A stretch of 64,000 nucleotides of DNA from a virus. Its lineage: Duplodnaviria > Heunggongvirae > Uroviricota > Caudoviricetes. Shown piece after piece: positions 6,230 to 48,594 of the stretch. The notes under the pieces are model-generated. The model was given only the letters and a program-made list of their open reading frames with translations. It searched no databases and was not told where the DNA came from. Position numbers and translations under genes: made by a program. Each line of letters opens with the position of its first letter. Position 1 is the stretch's first letter. The DNA lies in IMG/VR virus record IMGVR_UViG_3300046004_001633, positions 36,792-100,791 of that record; one strand, 5' to 3'.

Positions 6230-6289
6230 ACAATTCCTTTATTATAAATATAGAGTCGAACCTCAAACCATACAATCAAACTGTTATTG

Positions 6290-12723: not shown

Positions 12724-14349
<1,626 letters not shown>

Positions 14350-14397
14350 TTATTTTTCCTTTTTTATAACTATTTAATATAAATATTACATTGCAAT

Positions 14398-16461
14398 TTA
14401 TTTTGCAATTTCCAAAAACTTTTGATTTATTGTCTTTGCGATATCAACCATACTATCAGGTCTAATAAATTTAGAGTCCTGACCATACATTGTTTTAAAG
14501 TTTCGACGATCACTATCATATATATTTTGCTCATATATAAAATAACTAATGATGTTCATACCAATTTCTCGCATATCACCAATTACCTTTCTAGTAAATA
14601 CCACACCATCATAGACACTGCCTGTTCCATGGACCGGAGTAGGAGCTCCATCTGAGTAATTAATAAAAATTAGTTCATCCCCTTTAGCATCTGCTCGGAG
14701 ATCCTTTTCTATACTTTTAAAAGACAGACCTTCTGGTGTGCAACCAAATGTGGATAGATATTTAAAGTAATTACGAATCTTGCTTATTTTATCATGAGCT
14801 GAATCATATGCATATAAGGTAACACATCTTTCAACCCCGCCAGTTTGTGAATCAGTTCCGCGCAATGATATTTGTACCCGGATGCCGGTCGTCATTGATG
14901 CTGCTTGGGCAATTGCTACTGCACTAGTCATGGCTTGCTCTAACTTGTTTCCATGCATCGACCCAGATGCATCAATTGATATATGGATAAAATAATTCTT
15001 GAATCTATCAGTAACTATTCGGTGAAACACATTAGCATTATCAAAACCCAATTGAGCTACTAGTCGACGATCGATCTTTCCGGCTCCTAGTCGGGTTGAC
15101 TTAAGAGTCCTATCTGTGTTTCTCATTTGCAATTTGTTACCAAGCTGTTTACCTAATATTAGGCCTCTAGTAACAGCATCAGTCATCTTGATTATATCAC
15201 GCATATTATATGAATCTGTAGCGTAATTGCCATTCATTATCTCTGCAGATCGACTAGTAAACAAACTAGGCATCGATGAAATGACTCCTGGTGTTAGTTT
15301 CTTGATAACAACTGTAGTGATCGGATTATATTTACCATCTGGGCTAGTATTAATATCGCGGGTTTCTGTACCAGAATCGCGCATTGCATTAACCAATCGC
15401 GATTGAGCTTTTGATAACTTACCGGTTTTCTTTTGTTCTCCATTAATGAATTCTCGCTGAGCTTCAATAACTTTTTCTAGCTTTGCTTTATCTCGATCCG
15501 AAAGTTCCGGGGTATCATTAGTTTCATCATCGTCACCATCCCCGTCTTCCTCATCATCAGGCTCACCATCCCCAGCTCCGCCTGGTAGTATATCTAAATC
15601 ATTGCCACCTTTTTTATTGTCTGCATCATTGCCGGCTTCATATACCTTTTGTAATTCTTCAAGCTCAGTAGCCAACACCGCTGCAGCAACAATTTTATAT
15701 ACCTCACACGATAACATTAATGCATCGATAGTCGATTTTAATCTGCTGATATTCCCTAAATCGATTAAGTTCCATACATCTCGTAGTTTGGATAAAGAAT
15801 CCAATTGTCGATTTGCATTCGTAAAGTTAATGAGATGGAACATATAACAATCCCAATCTTCTTTAACCTTCACCTTACTAATTAATGCAGTATCAATAAT
15901 TTTATCATTGAAGTATTTATTATACATTGCTTCGTAATACATTCGATATCCTGGAGCAGATGTATATACGGTATAATCAATACGGCGATCTTCAATCCAA
16001 TTCAATATATCTTTAATGATACCGTATTTCTTTTCATTTAATGTCACAGGATCGATCTCGGTGTTGTTCACTATGCTAGCCATTTTAGTTCCAGCTAAGG
16101 TATATGCTTTTCCACCAGTTGGTGTTTTAAACAAACTAAAATCAGTATATGCAATATGAGAACCTTCATGCAATGCTAATCCAACAGCTGGGTCAAAGTT
16201 AGTACCATCTAATTTAGTACCAATTGTTACGGAGGCGCCATCAGTATAACTAGAATCATTGTTTTGAAATACTACAGGTATTTGTTTGCCTGTAACGATA
16301 TTAACGAAATTACCAATTGCTCGTTGAGCTGCTGCTAATTTAGTATAATCGACTGTGTTACCTACTTTAAAGCTAACATCGAAATCTCGATCTAACCAAA
16401 AACTAGATGCATATTTCTGAAATGCCTTCCCTGCTACGTATGTTGTTTTAATCTTTGCCAT
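14398..16461 (-). CDS. cobT: CobT-like protein with C-terminal vWA domain
   Basis: 687 aa. Central acidic tract PDDEEDGDGDDDETND as in aerobic cobaltochelatase CobT. C-terminal MIDAS motif DASGSM. Confidence 0.6.
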   Translation of the reverse strand: MAKIKTTYVAGKAFQKYASSFWLDRDFDVSFKVGNTVDYTKLAAAQRAIGNFVNIVTGKQIPVVFQNNDSSYTDGASVTIGTKLDGTNFDPAVGLALHEGSHIAYTDFSLFKTPTGGKAYTLAGTKMASIVNNTEIDPVTLNEKKYGIIKDILNWIEDRRIDYTVYTSAPGYRMYYEAMYNKYFNDKIIDTALISKVKVKEDWDCYMFHLINFTNANRQLDSLSKLRDVWNLIDLGNISRLKSTIDALMLSCEVYKIVAAAVLATELEELQKVYEAGNDADNKKGGNDLDILPGGAGDGEPDDEEDGDGDDDETNDTPELSDRDKAKLEKVIEAQREFINGEQKKTGKLSKAQSRLVNAMRDSGTETRDINTSPDGKYNPITTVVIKKLTPGVISSMPSLFTSRSAEIMNGNYATDSYNMRDIIKMTDAVTRGLILGKQLGNKLQMRNTDRTLKSTRLGAGKIDRRLVAQLGFDNANVFHRIVTDRFKNYFIHISIDASGSMHGNKLEQAMTSAVAIAQAASMTTGIRVQISLRGTDSQTGGVERCVTLYAYDSAHDKISKIRNYFKYLSTFGCTPEGLSFKSIEKDLRADAKGDELIFINYSDGAPTPVHGTGSVYDGVVFTRKVIGDMREIGMNIISYFIYEQNIYDSDRRNFKTMYGQDSKFIRPDSMVDIAKTINQKFLEIAK

Positions 16462-16520
16462 ATCTCTTTCTTTTCTATATAATAAGAAATTTATCAGTAC
16501 TATCCAACCTAATTGCTAAA
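16462..16520 (-). promoter_or_regulatory. sigma70-like promoter TTGGAT-N17-TATTAT
   Basis: Minus strand TTGGAT (16507..16502), 17-nt spacer with AGAAAT signature, TATTAT (16484..16479). Confidence 0.5.
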
Positions 16521-16569
16521 AATAAAAGGAGCTGGGCTGACCATACTCCTTATTTTCGAGCTATGAAAA

Positions 16570-17340
16570 TTAAAATGGCATATTGTTAACCGTATCTGGT
16601 TCGGTACCGACACTAAATATATCTTTCTCAACCGTTGCGATATGTTTCTGGATAATTTGTTTAACAAAAGTCCTTTCAGAATCAGATCCTCCCGATGCAT
16701 CAAAGAATGGAATGATTGCTACCTCAGACGCCTCAGCTAATGTAAACCCATCTGCTAGCAACTCACATACTCTAACAGTCATACGAGTTGATACCATAGT
16801 CGTTAACTTGCCTTCTTCAGAACGCCATTCTTTACGGGTTGCATCAGCAATGTCAGCTACTGAGTGAATCAATGTGGCACTAACTTGTTTGCCATATCGA
16901 TGCTTCAATAATGCTTCTTCGCGTTCCAATGTAAGGATATCAACCTCAATGATTTCGAAACGATCCATTAATGCTCTATCTATTACACGAGTTGATGTGT
17001 ACTCAGTACCAATATTGGCTGTTGCAATAAATGATACGCCCGATGCAACATGTATTGTCGGAGAGTTAACATCTTCATCTAATCGAAGATATCTTTGTCC
17101 TTCATCTAATACTGGCATTAAAATATTCCATGCTTCTGGGTGTGCTCGGGATAATTCATCTAAAAGTATTACGGCATTCTCTGTTTTGATTGCCTTAACA
17201 AAGGCTGATTCATCGAATGATGTCTGTCCATCTTTGAAATGTGTATTACCAATCAATGTAGATCTAGGATCTTGTGTTGCCCCTAGGTTAAAATAGAAGA
17301 ATGGTCTCTTACTTTCAATTTTAACTTTAAATTTTTCCAT
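16570..17340 (-). CDS. cobS: CobS/MoxR-like AAA+ ATPase, C-terminal half (Walker B and sensor regions)
   Basis: VILLDELSRAHPEAWNILMPVLDE (Walker B region) and FIATANIGTEY...IDRALMDRFEII (sensor/arginine-finger region). No Walker A in this ORF. Confidence 0.6.
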   Translation of the reverse strand: MEKFKVKIESKRPFFYFNLGATQDPRSTLIGNTHFKDGQTSFDESAFVKAIKTENAVILLDELSRAHPEAWNILMPVLDEGQRYLRLDEDVNSPTIHVASGVSFIATANIGTEYTSTRVIDRALMDRFEIIEVDILTLEREEALLKHRYGKQVSATLIHSVADIADATRKEWRSEEGKLTTMVSTRMTVRVCELLADGFTLAEASEVAIIPFFDASGGSDSERTFVKQIIQKHIATVEKDIFSVGTEPDTVNNMPF

Positions 17341-17398
17341 AGCTTTTTTTATTATTATAAGAAATTTATTTTATTAATCCAACCTTTTTTAGAATTGT
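17341..17398 (-). promoter_or_regulatory. sigma70-like promoter TTGGAT-N17-TATAAT in front of the ATPase C-half ORF
   Basis: Minus strand TTGGAT (17382..17377), 17-nt spacer, TATAAT (17359..17354). Confidence 0.5.
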
Positions 17399-18058
17399 AT
17401 TTACTTGCCATTTACTAAGTTCGGTAACTTTACAGATTTCAGAACGTATGCTATTATCAGTGTACATACTAATAACAACTTGTTTAATATCATTGGTTAT
17501 TATAACTTTTGGCTTGCGCCCGGAATTTGACAAATCTCTATTTTTATATATTTCACTATTACGAATACCTTCTCGTATAGCGTTTATTCGACTATCTTTA
17601 TTTTCTTTCCAATTTTTACTAATTTTTTCTGAACGCTTAAGTTTTGTTGCAGCGGACATGTTTTTATGAAAATTAGTAATTGATTTTTTAAGTTTTTCTT
17701 TCGATGTGGAACATTTCCATTTTTCAGTTGAAATTTTACTCATTTTATTTGAAAACTTATCCCAATCTGATTTAGTAAATCCTTTAAAATTTCCAACCCC
17801 GTAATTTTCTTCTGCTATATTATAGAATTTGGTACTAGTAGCGGCATCAAATTTTTTAATCCAAAATACTTCCTTATCTCGTAATTCATCATATGTGTTA
17901 CAATATTCTAATATTTCTTTTTTAAAATTTTCTTTACCGTACTTTTTTATAGCAGAGTGTAATCTTTTCCCGGATCCTAAATAATTTGGATTGTTATGTT
18001 TGTCTTTACCAATATAAGATTTACCGTTAACTAGATTAGTTGTTTTATATACCACCAT
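17366..18058 (-). CDS. GIY-YIG homing endonuclease (free-standing, Seg/I-TevI-like)
   Basis: N-terminal VVYKTTNLVNGKSYIGKD...YLGSG...EVFWIKKF matches the GIY-x10-YIG module. Lys-rich C-terminal DNA-binding region. Sits exactly between the two halves of the AAA+ ATPase gene. Confidence 0.75.
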   Translation of the reverse strand: MVVYKTTNLVNGKSYIGKDKHNNPNYLGSGKRLHSAIKKYGKENFKKEILEYCNTYDELRDKEVFWIKKFDAATSTKFYNIAEENYGVGNFKGFTKSDWDKFSNKMSKISTEKWKCSTSKEKLKKSITNFHKNMSAATKLKRSEKISKNWKENKDSRINAIREGIRNSEIYKNRDLSNSGRKPKVIITNDIKQVVISMYTDNSIRSEICKVTELSKWQVNTILKKVGLIK

Positions 18059-18121
18059 AATATTCTTTACTTTATTATAAATATGATAATATAGGGAAAA
18101 ACATTATGGTGGTATTAATCT

Positions 18122-18619
18122 TTACAACTTAGTTACCGAAATAACATTTGGATCTTTTAGGAGTGTCTGGTATTCTTCTTCTGTAACTTCTAATTGGTTA
18201 ACAACTGGGACATTAACCAATGCTTTTGCGGCTTGTGTCTTACCGCTACCTGCTGGACCAACACACATTATATTCTTACCTCTAACGGCAGATCGAACTA
18301 GATACTTCCATTTGATATCAGACATCTCTAAATCCTTTGGCTTAATTTCGTGTGAACGATTAATCAATGCCATTACTGGATCTAAAGTTACATCAACTGC
18401 TGTTTCCATTGCCGGCAGTATCTCTGCAGGAATTCCATCTGCGGATATTCTACGAGCCTTTTGGGTTTCGTGATTAAACACTAAAGCATCATTGCTAGCC
18501 TCAGCTGCGTCGATCATCGATTTTCTAAAAAGATGTGTGATGTCTTCTCCGGTGCTTACTTCAAATACTAATTTACCAGATAAACTTGTGGTAATTGTTC
18601 CATACTGTTTGTTATTCAT
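18122..18619 (-). CDS. cobS: CobS/MoxR-like AAA+ ATPase, N-terminal half (Walker A)
   Basis: Walker A GPAGSGKT 37 aa before the stop. Continuation of the AAA+ domain is found in ORF 16570..17340. Confidence 0.6.
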   Translation of the reverse strand: MNNKQYGTITTSLSGKLVFEVSTGEDITHLFRKSMIDAAEASNDALVFNHETQKARRISADGIPAEILPAMETAVDVTLDPVMALINRSHEIKPKDLEMSDIKWKYLVRSAVRGKNIMCVGPAGSGKTQAAKALVNVPVVNQLEVTEEEYQTLLKDPNVISVTKL

Positions 18620-18678
18620 AGCTCTTTATTTTATATTATTATAATAAGAAATAAAAAACTAATATCCAACCTTTATTG
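18620..18678 (-). promoter_or_regulatory. sigma70-like promoter TTGGAT-N17-TATTAT
   Basis: Minus strand TTGGAT (18669..18664), 17-nt spacer, TATTAT (18646..18641). Confidence 0.5.
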
Positions 18679-19752
18679 TAACTTTTTCACGGAAGTTCCA
18701 TCATCATATATTACAATTACAATGCCTCGATACTCTTCAGTAACTAGTTGTCCTAATAGGTTGATAGTTCTAACTATGAATTTATGTGGACGGTTGTCGA
18801 CTGAGATAGGACCATATTGTTTGAAGTTGCCATCATAGTCAACCTGTGTTAATCGGTAATAGTTTATGGCTGCCGGTGCATCAGTATCAACAAAATTATA
18901 ATCTAATAACTGAGTACTATTCCCAGCACCAGTTGTCATGTTTATAACATCCTTCTCGGTAAAGTCTCCGGTGGTTGTTCGTTCTAATATAAAGTGACTC
19001 GAGTTGTGTTCGGAAGCAGTCTGCCATTTTAATACATTGTACTCAGAATATTTTGTTCCTGTGAATTCAGTTAATTCAACCGGTAACGAATAAACTCTGA
19101 CTAATTCGATGTTATCTATCCACCATTCTTCTCCAGCCGAATTTACTCTACAAAATAAATCTATAGCTACTTGTGTTATTCCGGTTGGTAAGTATAGAGA
19201 TATAAATGTTGGGCCTGTAGTACTAGCACCTGCAGGAGCTTGGTATAAATCGCCAGTCGGAGCAGCAGAGTTTGTATAAGACCCATTTGCTGTATGATTA
19301 ATGGATCCTGTTGATGTATACGGCCATGATGCGTTAGCATTTCCTGTTATCCTAAGTTCGGAAATATAAGTAGCTCCTCCATTAGTTGATACTTGCACAT
19401 CAACAAAGTCTGCGACATCAACGCCTTTAGTTGTTGCCGTTGATGTAAATGAATGTGAAGCTAATCTAAATTTGAGTTGGTATTGTGATGTTGCACTTAA
19501 CCCAGTAACATTTGGCATCGAATACCAATCCTGTTCAGTACCAGACGCTCCATTGCCACTTCCATATATTACGGCACTCGTATTAGATGAAACTGATACA
19601 TTCGTTGCCCAAGTAGCTGTTGGCACTCCGAACCACCAACCAGCTGTTAAATAATTTGTGGAAGATGCTTCCATAAAATCATACTCAATTACTGTTTGGG
19701 CATGGATTGATATGTTAAATAATAAACATAGAGATAGTATTAACTTTTTCAT
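18673..19752 (-). CDS. secreted protein with signal peptide and C-terminal T9SS sorting domain
   Basis: N-terminus MKKLILSLCLLFNISIHAQ. C-terminal ~80 aa (...YRLTQVDYDGNFKQYGPISV...IVRTINLLGQLV...IVIVIYDDGTSVKKLQ) matches the Bacteroidota Por-secretion CTD pattern. Confidence 0.65.
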   Translation of the reverse strand: MKKLILSLCLLFNISIHAQTVIEYDFMEASSTNYLTAGWWFGVPTATWATNVSVSSNTSAVIYGSGNGASGTEQDWYSMPNVTGLSATSQYQLKFRLASHSFTSTATTKGVDVADFVDVQVSTNGGATYISELRITGNANASWPYTSTGSINHTANGSYTNSAAPTGDLYQAPAGASTTGPTFISLYLPTGITQVAIDLFCRVNSAGEEWWIDNIELVRVYSLPVELTEFTGTKYSEYNVLKWQTASEHNSSHFILERTTTGDFTEKDVINMTTGAGNSTQLLDYNFVDTDAPAAINYYRLTQVDYDGNFKQYGPISVDNRPHKFIVRTINLLGQLVTEEYRGIVIVIYDDGTSVKKLQ

Positions 19753-25347: not shown

Positions 25348-25368
25348 AATTTTCCTTTTATATAAATA

Positions 25369-26058
25369 TTAAGTTGGCTGAATAAATAGTGTCATATTAA
25401 ATACGCTGCCTGTTGGTGCTGTTCCTGCTAACGTTGCACCACCAGATCCGTTAGCCAATCTAATAGAGCCGGCAATATAATCACCTTTATTCACTCCCTT
25501 GCCAACTTTATTACTGCTAGTAGCCTCGAATACATTTGATTGTAACTTATCGATACTAGCAGTTTCTGCGCCAGTTTTATTATAGATTGATATATAATAA
25601 CCATCTCCATCACCATTGCCGGGTATACTCGTGCCAGTAGTTATTGATGCTGATACTATAATCCCAGTAACTGGCATCATAACGCCCATTATATATTTTG
25701 CTGAGGCCGTTATTATTGGTTGTGGTAGGCCTAGTCCAAAATAATATTCAAATCCGGGGATCAATGTTGACGCACTATATGTAGCAAATTGGATCGGCAT
25801 CATATAGGTTGTTAGTCCGCCGCCAGTTGCATTCAACGCATAACTTGCTGTTGTTGCGAATGAACTAGAGACTGCTCGGGATGCTGATGTAGCAAATGAT
25901 GCGGTACCTGTTAGTGGTCCGGTGAAAGACCCTGTAAATGAACCGGTTGCTATAATTGTATCTGTGCTAACACCAGTCAATGCATCAATTGTACGAGTTA
26001 CATGTTCTGCTTGTATAGTTCCACCGTTTGTGATACCTGTTTTATTTAATATTGCCAT
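25369..26058 (-). CDS. Ser/Thr/Gly-rich structural-like protein (possible fibre or tail component)
   Basis: 229 aa low-complexity STGA-rich sequence with a GNGDGDGYY motif. Confidence 0.4.
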   Translation of the reverse strand: MAILNKTGITNGGTIQAEHVTRTIDALTGVSTDTIIATGSFTGSFTGPLTGTASFATSASRAVSSSFATTASYALNATGGGLTTYMMPIQFATYSASTLIPGFEYYFGLGLPQPIITASAKYIMGVMMPVTGIIVSASITTGTSIPGNGDGDGYYISIYNKTGAETASIDKLQSNVFEATSSNKVGKGVNKGDYIAGSIRLANGSGGATLAGTAPTGSVFNMTLFIQPT

Positions 26059-29359: not shown

Positions 29360-29416
29360 CGGTCATTCCTTTTTGCTGGAACTGATTCAATATCGTAACT
29401 TTATTATAAATATGGT

Positions 29417-36527: not shown

Positions 36528-37393
36528 AATTGTAATTTGTTCAATATTGTGTTAGTATCCATACCAGATGCTTGTCGTAAGTCATCATATGAACCGTATT
36601 CTGTAATAAATTTATTTTGTATTCCAATTCTAGTTACGGCTACATTAAATGTAGAGCTTATTAAGTCTCCTAAGCCGCCAGTAATAAAATGATTTTCTAC
36701 TGAGAATATTTTGCTATCACTATTGAATACTTTTGAAATTTCATTAATGGACTCTGTTGAGATATTTGATAATGTAGAAACATAGAATATTCCAATTTCT
36801 TCATCACGCAATACATCATCTAATAGATGTCCTGTTACAAACACGTATTTATTATTTTTAGATTTTTGAATAATATTAATCTCATTAGATTTAACTACTA
36901 GATCTTGTGTATGTGAATGATTTGATAATCGAAAATACTTAGGATTACCATTAGCCCATGATTGTTTAAATAATTGTTCGAATTCGGAAGCAGATCCGGG
37001 TTCGTATACATCCATTCCCGGAATACTTCTCATTAATGCAATATCACTATAACAATGATGAGTACAGCCCAAGTCAGCATAATCATATGTTCCACCAACA
37101 GTAATAATTGTAACATCGGTATTTTGATATCCTAATCCAACTTTTATTTGTTCATACGCTCTTTCTACAACAAATGGAGCAATTGTATGTATGATTGGTC
37201 GCATCCCTTCGAGAGACATACCAGCAGCAACATTAACTGTAGATTGTTCGCAAATTCCTATATTAAAAAATCGATCCGGTGCTAGATTCTGGGCATCGCG
37301 CAACAAGTAGTGACTAATATCTCCTATTAATATTACAGATTTGTCATCAGTTTGTACAATATTTTTGCATATTTCTGCGAATTTAGTTCTCAT
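36524..37393 (-). CDS. transketolase, C-terminal subunit (pyrimidine-binding domain)
   Basis: FFNIGICEQSTVNVAAGMSLEGMRPI...GGTYDYADLGCTHH matches the Tkt Pyr domain. Confidence 0.65.
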   Translation of the reverse strand: MRTKFAEICKNIVQTDDKSVILIGDISHYLLRDAQNLAPDRFFNIGICEQSTVNVAAGMSLEGMRPIIHTIAPFVVERAYEQIKVGLGYQNTDVTIITVGGTYDYADLGCTHHCYSDIALMRSIPGMDVYEPGSASEFEQLFKQSWANGNPKYFRLSNHSHTQDLVVKSNEINIIQKSKNNKYVFVTGHLLDDVLRDEEIGIFYVSTLSNISTESINEISKVFNSDSKIFSVENHFITGGLGDLISSTFNVAVTRIGIQNKFITEYGSYDDLRQASGMDTNTILNKLQL

Positions 37394-43662: not shown

Positions 43663-43692
43663 TTTTTCCTTATAACTTTTATATAAATATGA

Positions 43693-48566: not shown

Positions 48567-48594
48567 TAATTAGCGTCCTTTAATATAAATATGA

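Follow-up and report, generated by a model that had tools for sequence, protein, structure and literature searches.

The window analysed here, a stretch of 64,000 nucleotides (nt) from IMG/VR virus record IMGVR_UViG_3300046004_001633 (positions 36,792 to 100,791), carries an ATPase gene of the MoxR/CbbQ class that has very probably been split into two genes by a mobile GIY-YIG homing endonuclease cassette, at the site coding for the alpha1-beta2 loop of the AAA+ fold. The cassette brings to the upstream piece (half 1) a stop codon and an acidic tail of 31 amino acids (aa), and to the downstream piece (half 2) a phage-type promoter motif, a start codon and a basic head of 11 aa. We infer that the two chains fold together into a functional ATPase, one contributing Walker A and the other Walker B. 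By its sequence, the window is from an uncultured, distantly T4-like phage, its PolB sharing 42% identity with the PolB of Microcystis phage Mel-JY01 and about 30% with cyanomyovirus gp43. All coordinates are those of the window, and the split ATPase locus is read on its minus strand.

Two halves of one ATPase gene and the cassette between them

Half 1 is encoded by the open reading frame (ORF) 18122..18619 (165 aa, with the Walker A motif GPAGSGKT at residues 121-128), and half 2 by ORF 16570..17340 (256 aa). They are separated by 781 nt, which are filled by a GIY-YIG endonuclease gene (17366..18058, 230 aa) and by non-ORF spacers of 63 nt and 25 nt, the latter being A/T-rich and located 3' of the endonuclease ORF. 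An earlier reading of the window (the original prediction) had given the same three ORFs, with GPAGSGKT 37 aa before the half-1 stop and a gap occupied almost entirely by the endonuclease gene; the coordinates, the spacers and the endonuclease assignment were all confirmed. The joined halves were found to have at least 8000 matches among 5.8 billion proteins, and the best among the matches listed are proteins of about 380 aa with up to 82% identity, which span 100% of the query. In a family profile (a hidden Markov model, HMM, of 120 homologues), half 1 matches positions 1-132 (181 bits) and half 2 positions 135-381 (537 bits), so that about 2 positions of the intact protein are unaccounted for and the breakpoint lies between the two. 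Because these homologues of about 380 aa are contiguous, ORFs 18122..18619 and 16570..17340 are, by homology, halves of one gene, as had been proposed. Relative to the family profile, half 1 has 31 extra C-terminal residues and half 2 has 11 extra N-terminal residues.

The core of half 1 (18218..18619, homologous to intact residues 1-132) contains the N-terminal domain, beta1, Walker A (18236-18259) and helix alpha1. The core of half 2 (16570..17307, homologous to intact residues 135-381) contains beta2, Walker B (VILLDE, 17155-17172), sensor 1, the Arg-finger region and the CbbQ_C lid. All of the catalytic motifs are kept in the two halves. In a low-confidence AlphaFold2 model, the break was located between helix 127-134 (GKTQAAKA) and strand 179-183 (FFYFN). 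According to this model, the topology of which is standard despite its low confidence, the break site is the alpha1-beta2 loop, and this loop falls amid the most conserved stretch of the protein.

Pfam assigns AAA_5 (3e-22), CbbQ_C (4e-5) and a weak bpMoxR match to the intact homologue P0002, and the nearest solved structures for the intact protein are the midasin AAA domains, NorQ and CbbQ. Half 2 alone matches AAA_5 (5e-14) at profile positions 25-139 only, as well as CbbQ_C, and half 1 shows only weak P-loop matches. The partner gene (14398..16461) encodes a 687-aa VWA/CobT_C-like protein (Pfam CobT_C (VWA), 1.5e-4; phrog_5298), and a long ORF stands directly 3' of the ATPase gene in most related loci with context listed, whether split or intact. 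Judged by these matches, the ATPase is a MoxR/CbbQ/NorQ-class AAA_5 protein with a VWA partner. Of the name CobS/MoxR-like given to it in the original prediction, the MoxR part stands and the CobS part does not: no CobS-specific Pfam domain is among the Pfam matches listed for the intact homologues, the sole CobS-type link is the PHROG label 'porphyrin biosynthesis', and none of the ORFs examined was noted as a cobalamin gene.

Compared with nearly isogenic intact alleles, the cassette is an insertion. In a blastn comparison with the intact allele L003, an ENA contig, 920 nt of the window (17305-18224), comprising the tail-coding sequence, the hairpin, the endonuclease gene, the promoter and the head-coding sequence, were found to stand in place of 25 nt. 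The 71 nt upstream of the ATPase gene are 100% identical in L003 and the window, and the two are 96% identical over 3 kb downstream from 17304, through the VWA gene, with 96.1% DNA identity in the half-2 core. The comparison with relatives free of the endonuclease gene that the original prediction had proposed thus gave an intact allele that misses exactly the endonuclease-bearing segment. The GC content of the cassette is 26.7%, compared with 39-40% in the flanking halves. Beside the junction, positions 18225-18265 contain about 10 substitutions in 41 nt relative to L003, mostly at third codon positions, whereas the adjoining 115 nt contain only 3; this diverged tract is probably a co-conversion tract derived from the cassette donor. 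A second near-isogenic comparison involves the split alleles L091/L092 and the intact alleles L093/L094, with flanks 97.4% and 98.4% identical. Here, the substitutions between L091 and L093 are bunched in the last approximately 40 nt upstream and approximately 33 nt downstream of the junction (RPIISVNLGS vs RPFFYFNLGA).

The cassette also appears to be mobile. Relative to L006/L007, the window is 97% identical in the tail, 100% in the spacer, 99.1% in the endonuclease gene and 100% in the promoter and head, while the flanks are only 86.9% (half 2) and 77.1% (VWA gene) identical. Such a near-identical cassette in phages with diverged flanks is indicative of horizontal transfer. A cassette more closely related than its surroundings, its presence or absence at the same site, and short diverged border tracts are the footprints expected of homing, which proceeds by the double-strand-break repair pathway (PMC2988022). 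The odd first 25 nt of L006 were considered and set aside as probably a contig-end artefact, since L007, with the same endonuclease protein, has a standard tail.

The endonuclease gene is free-standing, its ORF being set apart from both ATPase halves by stop codons and spacers, and is present in one copy within the window. Its N-terminal catalytic domain and C-terminal helix-turn-helix (HTH)-like region are reflected in Pfam matches to SegE_GIY-YIG (1.2e-5), to GIY-YIG (2.3e-3) and, in the C-terminal part, to HTH-type domains, and PHROGs assigns it to phrog_314, 'homing endonuclease' (3.5e-29). The residues VVY..YIG, Arg, Glu and Asn are seen in the protein. Its predicted target would be intact alleles, cut in or near the conserved stretch coding for Walker A to beta2.

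Split alleles and their tail and head peptides

The order half 1 (160-169 aa), 230-aa GIY-YIG gene and half 2 (246-258 aa) was found again in L004, L005, L088, L089 and two contigs from the Joint Genome Institute (JGI), L004 being the same as the window over the 4.4 kb compared (14300-18720). The endonucleases of split alleles are 64-99% identical, and all close endonuclease homologues with readable context were found in the same ATPase split. A scan of IMG/VR with the endonuclease gave only distant relatives matching its N-terminal domain, and no close relative of the 230-aa protein. A search with half 1 yielded 11 clusters (90% identity) of 160-169-aa proteins that end in the same tail. In all split alleles examined, the two halves have remained intact ORFs, including those in which the endonucleases are only 64-80% identical, indicative of long persistence of the split. 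In the INPHARED phage collection, no close relative was found; the best match is Mel-JY01, in which an intact ATPase domain is part of a 560-aa protein with 49% identity. One further candidate half 1, P0266 (158 aa; L096 4001-4919), which ends exactly at the split site, was rejected: its apparent end results from frameshift errors in a long-read contig of 5x coverage, apart from which the gene runs on uninterrupted.

Pairwise codon analysis of the split alleles gave saturated synonymous divergence (pS 0.5-0.9) and low non-synonymous divergence (pN); across tail and head, pS is 0.4-0.9 or higher and pN 0.04-0.19. The 45 codons preceding the tail have a pN of 0.08-0.17 with pS saturated; the tail has a pN of 0.08-0.19 and a ratio of non-synonymous to synonymous rates (dN/dS) of 0.04-0.16; and the head combines a pN of 0.04-0.16 with high pS. 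The half-2 core has a pN of about 0.09-0.10, its dN/dS for L088 being unreliable on account of unaligned indels, and the endonuclease gene has a dN/dS of 0.10-0.20 between alleles. Low pN at saturated pS indicates that the halves, the tail, the head and the endonuclease are all kept by purifying selection, with tail and head conserved across at least 11 clusters.

The tail of half 1 (VNVPVVNQLEVTEEEYQTLLKDPNVISVTKL, 18125..18217, followed by the stop codon at 18122-18124) belongs to the consensus xNVPVVxExEVTEEEYQxLLKDPNVISVTKL and is acidic, with an isoelectric point (pI) of 4.1-4.7 and a net charge of -2 to -5. The head of half 2 (MEKFKVKIESK, 17308..17340), which is absent from intact proteins, is conserved in other alleles as M[EK]KFKV[KRQ][IV]..K and is basic (pI 9.5-11.2). 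Neither peptide matches the family profile, and both fall inside the inserted segment, in the window relative to L003 as well as in L091 relative to L093. Among 1.84 billion cluster representatives, the tail was found in 4 proteins, all at the C-terminal ends of half-1 pieces bearing Walker A; within the power of a 31-aa query, this search returned no intact protein with the tail inserted internally and no other gene family with the tail. The possibility that the tail is a diverged duplicate of the beta2 segment, raised by a MAFFT alignment and a by-eye resemblance to AAA_5, was rejected on a family HMM score of -2.3 bits and an hhalign probability of 0.3%. A 76-aa metagenomic protein, P0307, combines a standard Walker A and tail with 25 unrelated N-terminal residues (MGNITVPTKETLATEYFVKKFIFVN...) and may reflect recombination, degeneration of a half 1 or an error of gene calling.

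The gap between the halves does not always hold the same gene. In L091 (1527-2165) and L092 (1416-2054), it is filled by an unrelated 212-aa GIY-YIG gene on the strand opposite to the ATPase halves; blastp detected no similarity between the 230-aa and 212-aa endonucleases. Everything from the tail stop codon to AAGATTGGATTAATAAAATAA is swapped for the 212-aa gene, and AAGATTGGATTAATAAAATAA, which encodes the endonuclease C-terminus in the window, is kept together with the tail, the half-2 promoter and the head. This arrangement indicates endonuclease turnover within a fixed split. In L095 (4001-5866), a distant MoxR subfamily member near a gp32-like gene is cut at the same alpha1-beta2 position. 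Its gap ORF (323 aa) has no Pfam match and a faint HNH PHROG match, and the C-terminal motifs of this ORF (EYNGIKWH..., FDVLVIWSDE) are, on visual inspection, similar to those of Vsr-like endonucleases from 'fractured genes' (PMC2677866). The L095 tail (..TETVTRERYEEMKRDGRYEILKVY) is also 31 aa long and aligns to the window tail without gaps, with V, T, E and Y invariant, and the L095 head is of the KIKVEY type; the closest pair, the window and P0273, has 8 of 31 residues in common. A tail/head scaffold kept around different endonucleases must be older than at least one resident endonuclease.

Tail and head probably help the ATPase pieces to reassemble. A broader proposal is that they form a portable 'antidote' module, which would travel with the cassette, outlive endonuclease turnover, perhaps cross between MoxR subfamilies of about 50% identity, and non-covalently rebuild the AAA+ nucleotide-binding fold from one piece bearing Walker A and another bearing Walker B. 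This proposal is tentative, and we give it slightly less than even credence.

Promoter-like motifs and the hairpin

Two classes of promoter-like motif recur in the window. The first, GGTTGGAT-N-TTATWATA, is present in 5 exact copies, all on the minus strand, where 0 would be expected, and its relaxed form in 11 copies where 1.9 would be expected. It stands before half 1 (18640..18671, as GGTTGGAT-N-TTATTATA, one of the 5 exact copies), before half 2 (17353..17384) and before the VWA gene (16478-16509). For half 2, the original prediction had named a TTGGAT-N17-TATAAT promoter; this element is present at 17354-17382 (-35 TTGGAT at 17377-17382, -10 TATAAT at 17354-17359) and was found to belong to the recurrent class GGTTGGAT..TTATWATA. 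Its -35 element overlaps the last codons of the endonuclease gene, and the motif is nearly unchanged in L091 despite replacement of the endonuclease.

The second motif, ATATTTATAWWAAAK, is present in 7 copies where 0.06 would be expected, all on the minus strand and each 7-25 nt upstream of an ATG: 6237-6251, 14372-14386, 18070-18084, 25355-25369, 29399-29413, 43676-43690 and 48578-48592. One copy precedes a GroEL-like gene. The copy at 18070..18084 (ATATTTATAATAAAG) lies 11 nt upstream of the endonuclease ATG, and ATATTTAT of the motif is conserved in other alleles. These copies probably represent a second promoter class (middle or late?), distinct from the GGTTGGAT-N17-TATAAT class. The TATAAATATG-type motif that the original prediction had assigned to the endonuclease gene had to be discarded, since at 18076-18085 it falls on the plus strand, which is wrong for that gene; TATAAATATG is the reverse complement of part of ATATTTATAWWAAAK and had thus been read on the wrong strand.

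The start of the endonuclease gene is predicted to be buried in an RNA hairpin (18049..18115, with a main stem of 19 bp), the AUG (18056-18058) being in the 3' arm and the second-class motif in the loop. The calculated free energy (dG) is -30.6 kcal/mol (z = -7.0), and none of 200 shuffled sequences folded as well. The stem is kept in 5 alleles, and changes in the non-coding 5' arm keep the pairing (C-G to U-G, G-U to A-U). No intrinsic terminator was predicted between the halves. In I-TevI, segB and mobE, a hairpin masks the endonuclease start and a later-class promoter yields transcripts without the 5' arm (PMC2988022, PMC3045599), and in the seg and mob genes of T4, a downstream promoter embedded in the endonuclease gene is thought to favour endonuclease retention (PMC2988022). 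In the window, the hairpin would similarly block endonuclease translation on read-through transcripts, and transcripts starting from the ATATTTATA-type promoter in the loop, being without the 5' arm, would allow it.

Alternative explanations, known split genes and gene surroundings

An insert of 0.9 kb with an endonuclease ORF could be a group I intron, the spliced mRNA of which would give one polypeptide. The reading frame loses almost nothing (about 2 profile positions), GIY-YIG enzymes are often intron-encoded, and the public annotation of this one is 'group I intron endonuclease'. Nevertheless, a search of 16300-18900 against Rfam gave no group I or group II match at E<=10, but only microRNA-like matches, which correspond to the hairpin, and others far below gathering scores. 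Only 25 nt of non-ORF sequence and the 33 nt coding for the head remain 3' of the endonuclease ORF, tail and head evolve as codons (pN 0.04-0.19 at saturated pS), and half 2 has a conserved promoter motif and an ATG of its own. In L091, the centre of the insert is swapped for an unrelated gene on the opposite strand, so that no conserved RNA core exists there. An intron is therefore very improbable and is excluded as far as sequence analysis can go, and the original prediction was right to prefer a homing-endonuclease insertion. Protein trans-splicing, in which tail and head would be split-intein halves that join the ATPase pieces, is suggested by the like gene order of half, free-standing endonuclease and half, and by the opposite charges of the extensions, as in split-intein halves (PMC2677866). 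In the split inteins of 'fractured genes', the N parts measure 88-105 aa and the C parts 33-54 aa, and they carry Cys1, Thr-x-x-His and a terminal Asn that precedes Cys (PMC2677866). At the present locus, the tail has 31 aa, begins with V, A, I or L and contains no Cys; the head is 9-11 aa long, without terminal Asn and without a +1 nucleophile; and no intein domain is among the Pfam matches of either half. Trans-splicing is hence scarcely credible.

It is also conceivable that the split inactivated the gene and that one or both halves are decaying, which a phage able to do without the ATPase would tolerate. Intact alleles far outnumber the split form, and the Walker A of the window, like that of the 79%-identical alleles P0242 and P0243, is GPAGSGKT in place of the family's GPAGCGKT. 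Such decay is, however, improbable in view of the intact ORFs of both halves in all split alleles examined and their long persistence, the low non-synonymous relative to saturated synonymous divergence in the Walker A region, tail, head and half 2, and the retention of all catalytic motifs. A different history, in which the gene was split with tail and head before any endonuclease was present and endonuclease genes colonised the gap later, is unlikely but carries some weight. One tail/head/promoter scaffold holds two unrelated, oppositely oriented GIY-YIG genes, in the distant L095 a similar tail and head flank an ORF of a third kind, and such a history has been put forward for gene 43 in Aeromonas phages 25 and 44RR (PMC2988022). 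On the other hand, no split allele without an endonuclease-like gene was found, and tail and head are in the low-GC segment that differs between near-isogenic alleles and move with the endonuclease gene. This alternative alters the history, not the present mechanism.

The reading preferred here, fragmentation by a mobile cassette followed by reassembly of the halves, has several points to its disadvantage. The approximately 11 split clusters (90% identity) stand against thousands of intact alleles, and a form in such a minority could carry a cost. AlphaFold2 modelling of the joined halves (50-sequence alignment) gave a mean pLDDT (predicted local distance difference test score) of 63, with block means of 47-56 for tail and head, which were given no clear structure. 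Since beta1 is a central strand of the AAA+ fold, the two pieces would have to co-fold. In addition, a generic sigma-70 scan was not above chance in this region.

The closest parallel is nrdA-a/mobE/nrdA-b of Aeromonas phage Aeh1, in which oppositely charged tails that came with the insertion are essential for the activity of the split NrdA (Crona et al. 2011, PMC3045599). The original prediction had drawn this comparison, and it holds even for the tails and the RNA hairpin (PMC3045599, PMC2988022). In both cases, a conserved enzyme gene is interrupted by a free-standing homing endonuclease gene in such a way that catalytic elements fall on either side, the halves have start or stop codons of their own, the insert is lower in GC than its flanks, and RNA structure masks endonuclease translation, as predicted here. 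The two differ in the endonuclease (GIY-YIG here, HNH in Aeh1), in the host gene (a MoxR-class AAA+ ATPase here, ribonucleotide reductase in Aeh1) and in charge polarity, which is reversed, the tail being acidic and the head basic here. Furthermore, the downstream half here has its own promoter motif, which overlaps the 3' end of the endonuclease gene, whereas that of Aeh1 relies only on a polycistronic early transcript. Tail conservation and mobility can be followed here in many natural alleles, and the Aeh1 tails have been studied biochemically.

Genes contiguous in relatives likewise became two polypeptides around an endonuclease gene in T4 (topoisomerase genes 39/60, with mobA between them) and in Aeromonas phages 25 and 44RR (gene 43; PMC2988022), and tail-like extensions have been noted on gp39 and gp60. 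Other host genes and other endonuclease families are involved there, and no translational bypass element of the gene 60 kind was seen at the window locus. With I-TevI, segB and mobE, the locus shares a stable hairpin over the endonuclease start and the placement of a later-class promoter, and with the seg and mob genes of T4 a downstream host-gene promoter inside the endonuclease coding region; the regulation proposed here is predicted from sequence and covariation. Unlike the 'fractured genes' (Dassa et al. 2009, PMC2677866), the window locus has no intein motifs and its extensions are far too short, so that any reassembly must be non-covalent.

Only a few genes of T4-like phages are documented cases of fragmentation by free-standing homing endonucleases, and no description of an endonuclease-split MoxR or AAA+ gene was found in the full-text literature searched. 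Every element of the locus has a precedent in T4-like phages; what it adds is the natural allele series. In public metagenome annotation, half 1 is a 'hypothetical protein' and the endonuclease a 'group I intron endonuclease', which suggests that the split has gone unnoticed. The idea of tails as an antidote comes from a single enzyme with biochemical data, Aeh1 NrdA, and its authors predicted similar, overlooked tails elsewhere (PMC3045599), a prediction that the window locus fits in a different enzyme class. The series of intact, split (endonucleases 64-99% identical), endonuclease-replaced and distant-subfamily alleles points to tails that are conserved, selected and co-mobilised. If true, the portable tail/head module would be the first comparative, multi-allele backing for the view that tails neutralise fragmentation. 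The locus is also a testable system for a P-loop ATPase that tolerates the separation of Walker A from Walker B, and may supply short peptides for assembling split proteins.

Two further genes border the locus, both on the minus strand. Immediately upstream of half 1, a 359-aa ORF (18673-19752) without Pfam or PHROG match is present in the window and L004, and is missing from the same position in L005 and L093; this pattern suggests an insertion specific to the lineage. The ATPase/VWA pair is directly followed by the gene for a full-length GroEL-like chaperonin at 12724-14346 (phrog_5725, 2e-175), and in L093 and L094, loci with intact alleles, this position is held by a gene of the Cpn60 family.

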